The notes under the pieces were generated by a model, which searched no databases, was not told where the DNA came from, and was given only the letters and a program-made list of their open reading frames with translations. 18,753 bases of DNA from a virus (lineage: Duplodnaviria; Heunggongvirae; Uroviricota; Caudoviricetes). The stretch is taken from IMG/VR virus record IMGVR_UViG_2698536576_000004. The stretch is one strand, 5' to 3'. Made by a program: the position numbers and the translations under genes. Of the stretch, positions 4,751 through 18,753 are shown in pieces (the stretch's first letter is position 1; every line of letters begins with the position of its first letter).

Positions 4751-4809
4751 TAAAAACGGCGGCAGAGCAGTCACGGAGTAAAACTGATACCGCCAAACGT
4801 CACCAGAAA
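4751..4809 (-). ncRNA. dicF: DicF small RNA (ftsZ-targeting sRNA of the dicB operon) with intrinsic terminator hairpin
   Basis: Minus strand reads 5'-TTTCTGGTGACGTTTGGCGGTATCAGTTTTACTCCGTGACTGCTCTGCCGCCGTTTTT-3', essentially identical to the DicF sequence as I remember it, including the GGCGG...GCCGCC stem and U-run. Ends approximate to +/-3 nt. Confidence 0.85.
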
Positions 4810-8603: not shown

Positions 8604-10160
8604 ATGAATGCCTATAAATTCAGAAATAATGATGAGATTGGAAAATTAGAGGCGGAAACTGATTCTTATCTTGATGCTTGTTTTTATGAGTCCAATGTTT
8701 TTAAAGGTATTGTGAATTTTGACTCTACTGAGAAGAATCCTGATTTTACAAGAAGAATTATTGTTGGAAGAACAGGAAGCGGTAAGTCTGCGTTGCTTAA
8801 AAAAATATTAGACAAAGGAAATATTAAGCTGCATGACACAATAGAGGCAGAAAATACGATATTTGAACATATTAATAACAATGTGTTTATATCTGATTTG
8901 ATCTCGAAAGGGATAGATTTACGTGGGTTTTATAAATCGTTATGGCTGCATGTATTACTTATGAAAGTTATACCAGCCGTTTATCGTTCTTCCTATCAAA
9001 GCTTTTTTGAGGAAATTAAAGATCTTATTGGTGGTAAGAAGAAACCGTATAAACCAGAAGTTGCGAATGATTATATTGAACAATTTAAAGAAAATTTCTT
9101 CAATGATAAAGCGCTCATTGAAATAAGTAACAAGCTTGAAAGTGATTTGTCATTCAAACTCGGAAATTCCGCTGTTGGTGTGGGTGGTAAAATATCTAAT
9201 TCTGATACAGCCAAAATACAATCAGAAACTTCAAGTTATGTGAGTCGTGAACTTCTTTTTAAACAAAAAGAACTTATTAAAATACTTAAAGAGGAGTTCG
9301 CTGACTCAAACCAGGTTAGAATAGTAATCAGTATCGATGATTTAGATAAATCTTGGTTAAGCACGAGCGCCATCAGATATGACTTTATTAATGCTCTTCT
9401 TGAGGCCTTTCGAGAATTATTAGATATAAAGTCGGTTAAGGTTCTGATATCAATAAGAACAGATATTTTAATGGGAATTTATAAAAGTAGTTTAAGGCAG
9501 GATGAGAAAGATCAATCTTTAATATATTCCATATCATGGAATAAAACGGAAATAAGAGAGATTATTGATGCTAGAATTAACCATTTGGTTAAAAATAGAT
9601 ATCAATCAAATAAGTCTGTATTAATGAAGGATATTTTTAATTTTACAGTTGAAGGTATTGGAGCAGATGATTATATCCTTGACAGAACAATGCTTAGGCC
9701 TAGAGATGCAATTAATTTCGTAAATATATGTCTTTCTGAGTGCGATGGTATGGTTAACATGAATGAAAATATTGTGTTAATTGCCGAAGAGAAATTTTAT
9801 TCATCCAGAAAGAGAGCTTTGGTTACAGAATGGAAAAGCATATATCCGTTTATCGAAGAATATTTGGATGTGCTTTCCTTGATTTCATTTTCTGATTTTA
9901 CAGTCTCAAACATAGGACAAGCAGTAAAAGATGATATATCGCAGCATTTACTTGATAGATTGACTGTAGTTAAAGAGGATGATCAACATACAAAAATATT
10001 GATGAATTTTGAGGAGTTACTTAAAGTCTGGTTCGTCGTAGGCGTGGTTGGCATAAGGAAAACAGCATCTTTAATTATATATTCATCTTTTGATAAACCT
10101 AATTTGGATATTACTGATATGAAGAGAGATTTTGTAATACATCCGTTGTTTGATAGGTAA
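8604..10160 (+). CDS. P-loop NTPase, 518 aa, KAP-like Walker motifs; AT-rich cargo gene, candidate defense/abortive-infection protein
   Basis: Walker A 'GRTGSGKS' (nt 8766-8789). Walker B-like 'RIVISIDDLDK' (IDDLD at nt 9333-9347), resembling the KAP-family hhhhDDLDR. Possible Arg motif 'LRPRDAINF'. Markedly lower GC than flanking genes (by eye, not computed). Preceded by an AT-rich promoter-like region (8500-8600). Confidence 0.85.
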   Translation: MNAYKFRNNDEIGKLEAETDSYLDACFYESNVFKGIVNFDSTEKNPDFTRRIIVGRTGSGKSALLKKILDKGNIKLHDTIEAENTIFEHINNNVFISDLISKGIDLRGFYKSLWLHVLLMKVIPAVYRSSYQSFFEEIKDLIGGKKKPYKPEVANDYIEQFKENFFNDKALIEISNKLESDLSFKLGNSAVGVGGKISNSDTAKIQSETSSYVSRELLFKQKELIKILKEEFADSNQVRIVISIDDLDKSWLSTSAIRYDFINALLEAFRELLDIKSVKVLISIRTDILMGIYKSSLRQDEKDQSLIYSISWNKTEIREIIDARINHLVKNRYQSNKSVLMKDIFNFTVEGIGADDYILDRTMLRPRDAINFVNICLSECDGMVNMNENIVLIAEEKFYSSRKRALVTEWKSIYPFIEEYLDVLSLISFSDFTVSNIGQAVKDDISQHLLDRLTVVKEDDQHTKILMNFEELLKVWFVVGVVGIRKTASLIIYSSFDKPNLDITDMKRDFVIHPLFDR

Positions 10161-10390
10161 TAGCAATGTGAATATGTTGAGACTACTGGAAAAGCTATAA
10201 CTCCTTTAGTAAAGTTTCCGTGGGTGCTTGAGGCTATCTGTCTCAGGCATGAACACCAAAGGCAGATAGAGAAAAGCCCCAGTTAACATTACGCGTCCTG
10301 CAAGACGCTTAACATTAATCTGAGGCCAATTTCATGCTAGACACATGTAGGTTAGCCTCTTACGTGCCGAAAGGCAAGGAGAAGCAGGCT

Positions 10391-10546
10391 ATGAAGCAGC
10401 AAAAGGCGATGTTAATCGCCCTGATCGTCATCTGTTTAACCGTCATAGTGACGGCACTGGTAACGAGGAAAGACCTTTGCGAGGTACGAATCCGAACCGG
10501 CCAGACGGAGGTCGCTGTCTTCACAGCTTACGAACCTGAGGAGTAA
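10391..10546 (+). CDS. hokD: Hok/Gef-family membrane toxin (HokD/RelF-type)
   Basis: 'MKQQKAMLIALIVICLTVIVTALVTRKDLCEVRIRTGQTEVAVFTAYEPEE', 51 aa, matches HokD/RelF as recalled. SD AAGGAGAAG upstream. In-frame upstream extension from 10334 not annotated separately. Confidence 0.9.
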   Translation: MKQQKAMLIALIVICLTVIVTALVTRKDLCEVRIRTGQTEVAVFTAYEPEE

Positions 10547-13307: not shown

Positions 13308-13655
13308 GTGCTTTAAATGGGGCAATAGAGATATTGAATCTCATCCCGGGATAAACATTGGCAGTTGAAGGTCCACGCGAACCATTTATCCAGCAAAATT
13401 CCACGCGTAATCCTGTGGTAATTTCTTCTGCATCTCGAAGATTGAGAGCTGAAACGTGAAGCTGGGCATCGATACGCCATCGGATGGGAATATAAGACCT
13501 TTGCTGCTTTTGTAGTCAAAGTTTTTGACAATTCCTGTCATTTTAGGGGACAGAAAAACTCCTTAATACTGATAACCGGGTGCACCATACACACGTTCCT
13601 GGAGAAAACTACTTTTTTGATAGGATTGAAGGTGGCTGGATGTCTAAAATAAACA

Positions 13656-13684: not shown

Positions 13685-13851
13685 GACTGCGTCGGTTTGA
13701 AGAACAGACGATATACGAAGTAGTTTACTAAAGCAGTTCTCATTTCAGGTGTTATTCACTTATTCCTTCTTTGAGTCTCTCCAATTAAGTACGAAGTCGT
13801 TTCTGTTATGCAAACCATTTATGCCGAAAGGCTCAAGTTAAGGAATGTAGA

Positions 13852-14067
13852 ATGTCAAATAAAATGACTGGTTTAGTAAAATGGTTTAACGCTGATAAAG
13901 GTTTCGGCTTTATTTCTCCTGTTGATGGTAGTAAAGATGTGTTTGTGCATTTTTCTGCGATTCAGAATGATAATTATCGAACCTTATTTGAAGGTCAAAA
14001 GGTTACCTTCTCTATAGAGAGTGGTGCTAAAGGTCCTGCAGCAGCAAATGTCATCATTACTGATTAA
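13852..14067 (+). CDS. cspB: Cold-shock protein (CspA family), CspB-like
   Basis: '[38 protein letters not shown]...' with RNP1 'KGFGFI' and RNP2 'VFVHF' motifs. 71 aa. AAGGA SD 7 nt upstream. Confidence 0.9.
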
Positions 14068-14348
14068 AATTCATCGCTCGTCTGTATACGATAACGAAGA
14101 AGGCTGATGCCTGAGTAGAGATACGGACAGAGTAGTGAATATTGGATCTCTTTAATAAAAAGTAAGGAGGTCCAATACATGAAACAATGGCTAGCATATT
14201 TGGCAAAATCTTAATCAGGAAAAGTATGCTAACCATTGTGGTGAAGTGCAGGTTTGCTGCATGAATAGTTTTACAGCAGAAGCTAACTGCTGGCATGGCA
14301 AAACAAAGTGCGTAAGTGGATGACTCCCACAAAAAGCACCACAATCTC

Positions 14349-14430: not shown

Positions 14431-14601
14431 TCAGGCTACAGCTTTAAGATTTGTCTGGAATACTTTGTTGCAATGAGGGCAGATCAAAAGGGCACCTTTT
14501 TGTACTCTTGAAAAACTGTGTTCTGACTCTTGGGTGCAGTTTGGGCAGGAACATTTAACGAGATAATTACGGCGTGATTTTGAGTCTTTACGTTCTGACA
14601 T
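14431..14601 (-). CDS. Small zinc-ribbon protein (CxxC...CxxC), hypothetical
   Basis: 56-aa product 'MSERKDSKSRRNYLVKCSCPNCTQESEHSFSRVQKGALLICPHCNKVFQTNLKAVA'. AGGA ~9 nt upstream of ATG at 14599-14601. The ORF is open from 14652. Confidence 0.5.
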   Translation of the reverse strand: MSERKDSKSRRNYLVKCSCPNCTQESEHSFSRVQKGALLICPHCNKVFQTNLKAVA

Positions 14602-16586: not shown

Positions 16587-16737
16587 GGTGTTCTGGTTTG
16601 TTACAAATTTATCTGAAGCAGTCATTGTTATAATTTTATTATTTGTACCTCTTGAGATTTCCTTGTTGGTTTTTCTCTCTGATATTTTTTTTCGGACCAT
16701 TCTGCCCAAGGGCTAATTTCTTCAAAAGGTAATAATT

Positions 16738-16950
16738 ATGTCTAACAAAATGACTGGTTTAGTGAAATGGTTTAACCCTGAAAAAGGTTTTGGTTTCATC
16801 ACGCCGAAAGATGGCAGCAAAGATGTGTTTGTCCATTTCTCAGCAATTCAGAGCAACGATTTCAAAACATTAACTGAGAATCAGGAAGTTGAATTTGGTA
16901 TTGAGAACGGACCTAAAGGTCCTGCCGCTGTTCATGTAGTGGCGCTTTGA
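16738..16950 (+). CDS. cspI: Cold-shock protein (CspA family), CspI-like
   Basis: '[70 protein letters not shown]', 70 aa, with RNP1/RNP2 motifs. AAGGT SD 7 nt upstream. Confidence 0.9.
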
Positions 16951-17155
16951 GGTAGACAATATTACAAACCATATTCACTTTAGATGCCCGTGTTGTCATG
17001 GTTCCCAGTATAGAACATCATCTTTTGATGTTTCTGACATGAATCCTTTCGGGGCAAAATGTATCTTTTGTAAATCAATGATGATTACATTTGATAATAT
17101 TTCACAATACTTAAATGCCAGCCGTCTGTCGTTGGATTTAAAAAAGTGAAAATGA

Positions 17156-17177
17156 AGGCTCCTTCGGGAGCTTTTTT
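17156..17177 (+). terminator. Rho-independent terminator
   Basis: GGCTCC-TTCG-GGAGC stem-loop followed by TTTTTT (17172-17177). Confidence 0.6.
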
Positions 17178-17296
17178 GCTTGGTGTCTATTCGATGGATA
17201 CTCACATACTACGGTAACATCATGAAAAAAATCATAGTTTTTTTTAACTCTGAACCAGCAGTGGTAATGCCAGCGATGACTGGAGTTAACACCATC

Positions 17297-17452
17297 ATGC
17301 GTGAATATCCAAATGGCGAAAAAACACACCTTACTGTAATGGCCGCAGGGTTTCCATCTCTGACCGGAGATCATAAAGTCATTTATGTAGCAGCGGATCG
17401 ACATGTAACTTCAGAAGAAATTCTGGAAGCAGCAATGAGACTCTTGAATTGA
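17297..17452 (+). CDS. Hypothetical small protein (YnfN-like position between cspI and gnsB)
   Basis: ORF open from TTG 17180, with in-frame ATGs at 17222, 17267, 17276 and 17297. The 51-aa product from 17297 was chosen on size analogy to Qin ynfN; no start has a strong SD, so the start is uncertain. Confidence 0.4.
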   Translation: MREYPNGEKTHLTVMAAGFPSLTGDHKVIYVAADRHVTSEEILEAAMRLLN

Positions 17453-18093: not shown

Positions 18094-18321
18094 ATGCATA
18101 AAGATCAATACACTGATGCCCCCTCCCAGGAGCAGGTTCGTGTAAAAACTATGCTTAATAGCACCATTTCGATGGGTTACCCGGATGTTGTAATTGCATG
18201 TATAGAACATCAAGTGTCTCTGGAAGCATTCAGGGCAATTGAGGCCGCGTTAGTAAAGCACGATAAGAATACGAAGGATTTGGATTTGCCCCTATATTTC
18301 CAGACACCTGTTATCACTTAA
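18094..18321 (+). pseudogene. Prophage gene truncated by IS2 insertion (native coding sequence ends at ~18280; last 13 codons are IS2-derived)
   Basis: The ORF reads continuously into the IS2 terminal inverted repeat that begins at 18281, so '[13 protein letters not shown]' is encoded by IS2 end sequence. Native part '[14 protein letters not shown]...VKHDKNTKD'. Confidence 0.6.
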
Positions 18322-18753
18322 CCCATTACTGGCCTGCTGCCGCAGATATTCCCGTGGCGAGCGATAACCCAGTGCACTATGCGGATGCCATTCGTTATAA
18401 TGCTCGAACGCCTCTGCAAGGTTCTTTGCTGCCGTTAACCCGTCTGGTTTAGGCATGATACTGATGTAGTCACGCTTTATCGTTTTCACGAAGCTCTCTG
18501 CTATGCCGTTACTCTCCGGCCTCCGCACCGCCGTGTTCTTCGGTTCAAGCCCCAACATCCGGGCAAACTGCCGTGTTTCATTAGCCCGGTAGCATGAACC
18601 ATTATCCGTCAGCCACTCTACTGGAGACGCCGGAAGCTCGTTGCCGAAGCGGCGTTCCACCGCTCCCAGCATGACGTCCTGTACTGTTTCACTGTCGAAG
18701 CCGCCCGTAGTGACTGCCCAGTGCAGTGCCTCACGGTCACAGCAGTCCAGCGC
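18281..18753 (-). mobile_element. IS2 (IS3 family) insertion sequence, partial; runs off the window's right edge
   Basis: Terminal sequence 'TGGATTTGCCCCTATATTTCCAGACACCTGTTATCACTTAACC' at 18281-18323 matches the IS2 inverted-repeat end as recalled. The adjacent minus-strand ORF matches the IS2 OrfB (InsD) C-terminus. Confidence 0.9.
18292..18753 (-). CDS. insD: IS2 transposase OrfB (InsD), C-terminal part; N-terminus lies beyond the window
   Basis: '...[62 protein letters not shown]...[29 protein letters not shown]' matches the InsD C-terminus as recalled (DDE integrase core). Reading frame stays open to the window end. Confidence 0.85.

Follow-up and report, generated by a model that had tools for sequence, protein, structure and literature searches.

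In Escherichia coli K-12 MG1655, the gene ynfQ (b4724; 1638256-1638444, 189 nt) lies in the Qin prophage after cspI, as its paralogue ymcF (b4723) sits after cspG, and a plain translation of the two annotated coding sequences gives isoleucine, from ATT, as the first residue. YmcF and YnfQ were reportedly found by D'Lima et al. in 2017, by comparative proteomics and mass spectrometry after cold shock, and the same work is said to have established their cold induction and to have demonstrated the ATT start by mutation. Messengers with cspA-type leaders are known to become more stable and to be translated more in the cold. PMC10191623 refers to D'Lima et al. 2017 on bacterial AUU starts, and ynfQ is still counted among the uncharacterised Qin genes (PMC11551758). 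VanOrsdel et al. 2018 (PMC6001520) describe YnfR, the product of the next gene downstream, as cold-induced, and give the name 'ynfQ' to a different 37-aa ORF between ydfJ and ydfK.

Very few genes of E. coli are initiated at AUU, and ynfQ is one of them. Up to the time of one report, infC and pcnB were the only ones recognised (PMC5499595); according to that report, IF3 rejects AUU, which limits or regulates output, and IF3 proofreading is temperature-sensitive. In vitro, however, an AUU mRNA is less active than an AUG mRNA at low temperature (PMC5499595), and AUU is thus not by itself a cold-favoured start.

The window analysed here, a stretch of 18,753 nucleotides, represents an E. coli prophage of the lambdoid, Qin type, inserted beside rspB. 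Downstream of cspI, a first-pass annotation had noticed an open frame with no canonical start ahead of its first pair of cysteines, and a direct reading of the codons bears this out. After a TAG at 16937-16939, the frame is open from 16940 to the TGA at 17147-17149 and encodes 69 residues. Its codons up to the first cysteine codon (16985) are TGG CGC TTT GAG GTA GAC AAT ATT ACA AAC CAT ATT CAC TTT AGA, with no ATG, GTG or TTG among them; the two ATT codons fall at 16961 and 16973, exactly where they had been placed. ATG 17039 is indeed the only canonical start of the frame, 3' of the first cysteine pair. Because none precedes that pair, the mechanical ORF list holds a single entry in this frame, the 36-aa piece at 17039..17149.

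Table 1. Features of the cspI-ynfQ-ynfR segment, in coordinates of the window.
Feature	Position	Strand	Basis and remarks
cspA-type thermoregulator element (5' leader and cspI coding region)	16592..16977	+	Rfam RF01766 cspA
cspI, 70 aa	16738..16950	+	ORF list; RefSeq in several genomes; K-12 b1552
Shine-Dalgarno GAGGT	16949..16953	+	Overlaps the cspI stop; 7-8 nt 5' of ATT 16961
ATT initiation codon of ynfQ	16961..16963	+	RefSeq/K-12 CDS start; aligned codons; first residue matched by the Pfam YmcF-like model
ynfQ CDS, 62 aa and stop	16961..17149	+	(M)TNHIHFRCPCCHGSQYRTSSFDVSDMNPFGAKCIFCKSMMITFDNISQYLNASRLSLDLKK; identical to K-12 YnfQ; Pfam match
First knuckle, C9-P-C11-C12 (predicted metal-binding)	16985..16996	+	In near-invariant block FRCPCCHGSQYRTS
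Second knuckle, C34-I-F-C37 (predicted metal-binding)	17060..17071	+	In conserved block GAKCIFCK
ynfR, 21-aa small protein	17152..17217	+	RefSeq and K-12 b4749; begins 2 nt 3' of the ynfQ stop; shares sequence with the hairpin
Intrinsic-terminator-like hairpin and U tract	17154..17178	+	RNA fold; begins 5 nt after the ynfQ stop

The frame is ynfQ, a gene already known, including its ATT start, from the K-12 annotation, UniProt and Pfam. Of 5426 complete E. coli genomes, 2145 carry the segment 16700-17250 by megablast, and their annotation lists cspI, a gene called 'ynfQ' or 'ymcF: cold shock small protein YmcF', ynfR and ynfN, in this order. In the two records examined in detail, the RefSeq coding sequence WP_071524604.1, whose product name is 'cold shock small protein YmcF', corresponds to 16961-17149 of the window and begins at the ATT. 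An exact look-up matched the window protein without difference to YNFQ_ECOLI (K-12 YnfQ, b4724). Its residues 1-62 align with positions 1-62 of the Pfam profile PF23641 (YmcF-like) at 111.8 bits, against a cut-off of 27. Along with this full-length profile match, YnfQ shares with the YmcF-like proteins the motifs FRCPCCHGSQYRTS and GAKCIFCK and a place 3' of a cspA-family gene. A protein search returned 132 homologues across the Enterobacteriaceae, mostly of 62 aa, and all 120 among the matches listed carry PF23641. The frame is therefore far beyond what chance would leave: it is a conserved, annotated gene.

To locate the start of translation by comparison, we aligned the window and K-12 ymcF with 78 species-level loci, 80 sequences in all (80 loci were fetched of 277 found). 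At the codon aligned to 16961, ATT stands in 55 of the 80 (Escherichia, most Citrobacter, Kosakonia, Scandinavium, Yokenella and others), ATC in four (Salmonella and Siccibacter) and ATG in 21 (Klebsiella, Raoultella, Enterobacter, Leclercia, Silvania, Shimwellia and Citrobacter sedlakii). In many ATT loci, just 3-7 codons separate the upstream in-frame stop from the aligned codon, and none of these is a canonical start. GAGG, AAGG or AGGA is found at -12/-11 in all 80 sequences, and across 72 distinct sequences the AGG at -11 to -9, 8-9 nt 5' of the start, is effectively invariant (entropies of 0, 0.4 and 0). The databases also contain entries of 70-71 aa that begin 'MW...'. These are gene-caller extensions from a canonical codon in the 3' end of csp, and they still have isoleucine at the residue aligned to YnfQ position 1. 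The aligned start codons, the conserved Shine-Dalgarno and the isoleucine of the extended entries together point to initiation at 16961, which is thus supported on comparative evidence alone; ATT 16973 and ATG 17039 find no such support as starts. In this gene, then, the absence of a canonical start, an AUU at the very place where orthologues start and a Shine-Dalgarno at functional spacing occur together. Non-canonical initiation at ATT 16961 had been the second of three alternatives put forward for this frame, and it proves right to the base: the RefSeq and K-12 coding sequences begin there, and the homologue alignment that had been suggested as a check places the ATG of the 21 loci exactly on this codon.

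We accordingly read the locus, with a probability of roughly 0.93, as ynfQ of a Qin-type prophage, encoding a 62-residue miniprotein of the YmcF family that would be cotranscribed with cspI, start at AUU 16961 and have its terminator at the hairpin just downstream.

A different view, the first of the three alternatives, was that the frame is a recent start-loss pseudogene, in which an ancestral ATG became ATT and the frame is now decaying. The lack of a canonical start before the first cysteine pair fits such a history, as does the ATG found at the same codon in 21 related species-level loci; moreover, the prophage is cryptic and carries other decayed genes, for example a cspF pseudogene. The pattern of substitution in the coding sequence argues otherwise. 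Over codons 2-45, the mean column entropy is 0.36, 0.22 and 1.21 at codon positions 1, 2 and 3, respectively, so that substitutions in ynfQ are mostly at third positions. Against distant orthologues, pN is 0.07-0.13 and pS, which is saturated, 0.64-1.0; where dN/dS is computable, it is about 0.05-0.07. Nearly every locus retains an unbroken frame of 62 codons. Judged by these comparisons, the ynfQ coding sequence is under strong purifying selection and, by that measure, is a functional coding gene. In addition, the Shine-Dalgarno core is invariant, the gene is part of the K-12 annotation, and ATT or ATC is the majority state, in 59 of the 80 sequences, across Escherichia, Citrobacter, Salmonella, Kosakonia, Scandinavium and Yokenella and in the paralogue ymcF. 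The conservation of ATT/ATC in these 59 and the purifying selection contradict the idea of a pseudogene, which we reject as extremely improbable.

The protein itself bears on where translation begins. YnfQ has five cysteines, arranged as C9-x-x-C12 and C34-x-x-C37 with a further conserved C11. The first-pass annotation had given the arrangement as CxxC-N20-CxxC; the two pairs are there, but 21 residues, not 20, lie between C12 and C34. In an alignment of 30 diverse family members, residues 5-20 are the family's most conserved part, with F7, C9, P10, C12, G14, S15, Q16, R18 and S20 invariant and C11 and H13 conserved in at least 90% of sequences. Around the second knuckle, G31, A32, K33, I35, F36, C37 and K38 are invariant and C34 is conserved in at least 90%. 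The upstream cysteine pair, whose lack of conservation would have spoken against the longer frame, thus lies in the best-conserved block of the family.

These data also weigh on the suggestion that the product is shorter, made by initiation at ATG 17039 (36 aa) or at ATT 16973 (58 aa). The first of these is the only canonical start of the frame and the second is its second near-cognate codon, which is what speaks for them. M27, however, the residue encoded by the internal ATG, is unconserved, being K, R, S, Q or N in homologues, and the most conserved block, with the first knuckle, lies upstream of it. Codon 5, the ATT at 16973, encodes a conserved internal isoleucine, and species that use ATG align it to codon 1, not to codon 5. 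The Shine-Dalgarno is far from both candidates, about 20 nt from ATT 16973 and about 86 nt from ATG 17039. None of the homologues begins at the internal ATG, a finding that would have counted against the upstream start. We consider a shorter product very unlikely and keep AUU 16961 as the start.

An AlphaFold2 (AF2) model of the 62-residue protein (pLDDT 74) has two beta-hairpin knuckles with short strands around them (residues 17-19 and 32-34), and a C-terminal helix (44-58). The best E-value of a Foldseek search of this model against the PDB was 0.6, which is non-significant; the weak top matches, to MqsA, TFIIE-alpha and eL43, were all of the zinc-ribbon type. When the PDB sequences were searched with a profile, no match had an E-value below 0.05, and the marginal matches, at E = 0.05-0.2, were mostly to the Rieske box 'CPCHGSQY', as compared with CPCCHGSQY in the family. 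An NCBIfam match to 'ECs_2282 family putative zinc-binding protein' was sub-threshold (17.8 bits versus a cut-off of 37). In a 2026 review (PMC13348028), YnfQ as modelled by AlphaFold-3 has a metal site and the topology of a rubredoxin. In these models, the fold of YnfQ looks zinc-ribbon-like, a likeness that does not reach statistical support, and the metal could be zinc or iron. Our best guess is that YnfQ is a metal-stabilised binding module that would act in cold adaptation, with nucleic acid or the machinery of transcription or translation as its target.

The transcript context points to cold shock. The cspA-type element matches Rfam RF01766 over model positions 1-428 with 112.8 bits (gathering score 78; E = 1.3e-28), and this match implies that ynfQ is carried on a cold-shock mRNA. 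At the other end, the first-pass annotation had predicted a good terminator just 3' of the frame, and a hairpin followed by a U tract is present there. Positions 17154-17162 pair with 17167-17175 in a 9-bp stem closed by a UUCG loop. The fold has a free energy of -14.9 kcal/mol (z = -2.69), and 2 of 200 shuffled sequences fold as well. A simple terminator scan of the plus strand does not list the hairpin after ynfQ, and the call rests on the explicit fold.

Between these elements, cspI and ynfQ are closely apposed. The TGA of cspI, at 16948-16950, lies 10 nt 5' of the ynfQ ATT and is embedded in the Shine-Dalgarno (cTT-TGA-GGt); the ynfQ frame is +1 relative to that of cspI. We also considered a conserved RNA structure that masks the Shine-Dalgarno and start and thereby forces translational coupling. 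Folded alone, the window sequence of this region gives a non-significant z = -1.8, and RNAalifold on 20 diverse loci gave -0.9 kcal/mol, essentially unstructured; on these two results, such a structure was rejected.

The frame relationship is also the ground for the third alternative, recoding from the cspI region, in which ribosomes translating cspI would shift by +1 and produce a CspI-YnfQ fusion of about 137 aa. The shift would have to take place within 8 nt, between the ynfQ-frame TAG at 16937-16939 and the cspI stop at 16948-16950. Its attractions are that ynfQ is in the required +1 frame, with the two frames overlapping by a few codons, and that the ymcF homologue of Citrobacter sedlakii is actually joined in frame to a degenerate csp ORF. 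Yet an intact csp directly 5' of the gene is missing from 33 of the 80 sequences, and these specify the same protein, beginning at the same aligned codon; among them, Klebsiella, Raoultella, Enterobacter, Leclercia, Silvania, Pseudescherichia and Atlantibacter all keep the 62-aa protein with the same start. The residues before position 1 are unconserved as protein, the conserved Shine-Dalgarno stands at ideal spacing for independent initiation, and RNAalifold on 20 diverse loci found no conserved stimulatory structure at the junction. Since the 62-aa product and its start position are unchanged in orthologues that lack an upstream csp, this alternative too is contradicted, and we regard a recoded fusion as highly improbable.

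The relation between the start codon and the adjacent csp can be followed across the same 80 sequences. An intact csp ends 9-10 nt upstream in 47 of them, and all 47 have ATT or ATC at the aligned codon. An intact adjacent csp is absent from every one of the 21 ATG sequences. Klebsiella, Raoultella and Shimwellia retain a decayed csp remnant upstream ('...AVVNVVAKRG*'). There are 12 exceptions, in which ATT is retained without an intact adjacent csp: eight are of the Pseudescherichia type, three are Atlantibacter, with ATG as codon 2, and one is a Citrobacter with a frameshifted csp.

Taken raw and ignoring shared ancestry, the association of start codon with csp adjacency has a Fisher p = 3.5e-11, which we do not read as a true probability. 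The independent AUU to AUG switches are few, perhaps roughly 3-4, the groups being Klebsiella/Raoultella/Shimwellia, Enterobacter/Leclercia/Silvania, Citrobacter sedlakii and Atlantibacter (with its ATG at codon 2).

Having documented the identity of the gene, the position of its start, the conservation of the protein and of its Shine-Dalgarno and AUU, and the purifying selection, we propose the following mode of expression for ynfQ. It would be cotranscribed with cspI on an mRNA that bears a cspA-type cold-sensing leader; it would be translated from AUU 16961, with a GAGG 7-8 nt ahead of it that shares bases with the cspI stop; and transcription would mostly stop at the hairpin just past the ynfQ stop. 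The weak AUU start may hold YnfQ output low and tied to cspI, and ribosomes that end cspI 10 nt upstream would supply ynfQ initiation by translational coupling. Discrimination of IF3 against AUU, reportedly relaxed at low temperature, may add a cold-specific translational boost.

A broader and much more tentative idea, which we hold at somewhat worse than even odds, is that the start codon tracks the upstream gene, being AUU or AUC next to an intact csp and AUG after csp has decayed or been lost, and that the AUU would be fed mainly by ribosomes terminating on csp. Coupling cannot be an absolute requirement, given the 12 ATT loci without an intact csp. If the idea is true, termination-reinitiation or local coupling would make the output of the miniprotein a fixed small fraction of Csp synthesis, and temperature-sensitive IF3 proofreading would sharpen this coupling to csp for the cold. 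We know of no description of such a dependency of the ynfQ or ymcF start codon on csp. The correlation may thus be new, and it is the sole element of this work that might merit follow-up; should it hold, the family would offer a compact natural system for coupling to non-canonical starts and for IF3 proofreading in the cold. As a gene, ynfQ alters nothing that was known, being already in the reference annotation and in the 2017 literature. It does illustrate why AUU genes get missed: ynfQ is absent from mechanical ORF lists, goes unannotated in most of the phage records that contain it and receives a false N-terminal extension from some gene callers.

Several described systems can be set beside this locus. 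Within the same prophage, the first-pass annotation had likened the frame to a zinc-ribbon gene at 14431-14601, which is ynfU, on the minus strand. YnfU was identified by Weaver et al. (bioRxiv 10.1101/511675), who described its pair of zinc knuckles. The likeness holds in so far as both are small proteins with two CxxC-type knuckles, and ynfU adjoins a csp gene, cspB; it does not extend to descent. The ynfU gene has a canonical ATG and lies on the opposite strand, and 18 residues separate its knuckles, as against 21 in YnfQ. BLASTP gives no alignment between the two at E <= 100, and YnfQ matches neither of the YnfU profiles PF23499 and NF038384, both of which are matched by the window YnfU. 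With BLASTP empty and the Pfam families different, homology of YnfQ and YnfU was rejected.

Zinc-ribbon and rubredoxin-like domains, such as the N-terminal domain of MqsA, TFIIE-alpha and eL43, have two cysteine knuckles on beta-hairpins, as does the YnfQ model. YnfQ differs from them in its extra conserved Cys11 and His13, and in that its CPCCHGSQY faintly resembles the Rieske box II, CPCHGSQY (E = 0.065-0.2).

The closest counterpart is K-12 YnfQ (b4724), with the same 62-aa sequence, ATT start and Shine-Dalgarno and the same position in the series cspI - ynfQ - ynfR - ynfN - gnsB; the prophage of the window differs from K-12 Qin in the integrase beside rspB, in a P-loop ATPase gene and in the cspF pseudogene. 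YmcF (b4723) comes next: it too has 62 aa, is 65% identical to YnfQ and diverges from it in the C-terminal tail. Like ynfQ, ymcF starts at an ATT 10 nt after a csp stop; at both loci an AAGG/GAGG Shine-Dalgarno overlaps the csp stop, and a gene of the gnsA/gnsB type lies farther 3'. The loci differ at the 3' end of the miniprotein gene, which ymcE overlaps at cspG, whereas ynfR and ynfN follow ynfQ at cspI. Finally, infC (which encodes IF3) and pcnB share with ynfQ an AUU initiation codon preceded by a normal Shine-Dalgarno. Their proteins are unrelated to YnfQ, and the AUU of ynfQ, unlike theirs, follows at a distance of 10 nt the stop codon of a gene with very high expression. The ynfQ family is further set apart from infC and pcnB by the exchange of AUU for AUG in lineages that have lost the upstream csp.

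Across 80 YmcF-family sequences, we compared the start codon of ynfQ and its relatives (window positions 16948-16963 against L004-L084, our handles for species-level loci) with the state of the csp gene upstream. Wherever an intact csp ends 9-10 nt upstream, the start is ATT or ATC (47 of 47), and ATG starts, 21 in all, occur solely at loci where csp is decayed or absent; both figures are raw counts that ignore phylogeny. In Klebsiella, Raoultella and Shimwellia, a csp remnant is still visible upstream. Within the same 80 sequences, ATT is retained at 12 loci without an intact csp.

Pseudescherichia-type loci with ATT and without csp (L020, L022, L023, L026, L028 and L030) carry a tiny ORF, ATG-AAA-AAA-GGA-TAC-TAT-TAT-TAC-TAA, which covers roughly positions -19 to +7 relative to the start, is read in another frame and overlaps the ATT. 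It might stand in for csp as a coupling ORF. Alternatively, because it is missing in P. vulneris (L050), it may be there by chance.

Homologues of ynfQ, with 93-98% identity, are also found in sequenced temperate Escherichia phages, including Tritos, 2H10, mEp460, HannyBb and PhiR42_1 (records OV696610, PV340562, PV340573, NC_049950, PP925841, LR597641 and others). Five of seven Escherichia phage records leave the homologue without any annotated feature, presumably because of its ATT start.

The motif CPCCHGSQY (YnfQ residues 9-17; window 16985-17011) is invariant. Given the conserved C11, H13 and H6, the metal site may be other than a plain Zn(Cys)4. The motif faintly resembles box II of the Rieske iron-sulfur protein, CPCHGSQY, in cytochrome b6f subunits, a likeness that is not significant (profile against PDB sequences, E = 0.065-0.2).

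Downstream of ynfQ, the terminator hairpin takes its 5' arm from the opening codons of ynfR, a gene that can therefore be translated only from read-through transcripts. YnfR is strongly induced by cold shock (VanOrsdel et al. 2018, PMC6001520), and this induction would fit Csp-mediated antitermination. The length of the next gene, ynfN, depends on the annotation: that of K-12 gives 51 aa, from a start further downstream than PGAP's. Neither Pfam nor NCBIfam yields a match to ynfN.

Features of the window in order of position
Feature	Position	Strand	Remarks
DicF sRNA	4757-4808	-	72.5 bits
'P-loop ATPase, Sll1717 family' gene	about 8604-10160	+	just upstream of hokD/sok
hokD/sok	10222-10396	+	Rfam sok, 118 bits
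cspF pseudogene	13351-13553	-	frameshifted, truncated; points away from cspB
Second cspA-type thermoregulator	13691-14083	+	158.8 bits; spans cspB leader and CDS
ynfU	14431-14601	-	Cys-knuckle miniprotein gene
ynfR	17152-17217	+	21 aa; begins 2 nt past ynfQ stop
ynfN	17222-17452	+	76 aa (PGAP); starts 4 nt after ynfR
IS3-family (IS2-like) transposase fragment	18292-18672	-	right end of window

The other lysis-region csp gene, cspB, is followed on the opposite strand by ynfU, so both neighbour a gene for a Cys-rich miniprotein; the sequences of YnfQ and YnfU are unrelated.

In the closest genome, LH85-a, cspF is likewise annotated as a pseudogene, and the match to the window stops at 18280; LH85-a has an IS1 within rzpQ, whereas the window lacks it. 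In K-12, by contrast, cspF is intact and is followed by ynfS. The P-loop ATPase gene may be defence-type cargo, because the Qin prophage of K-12 has different genes at that place.
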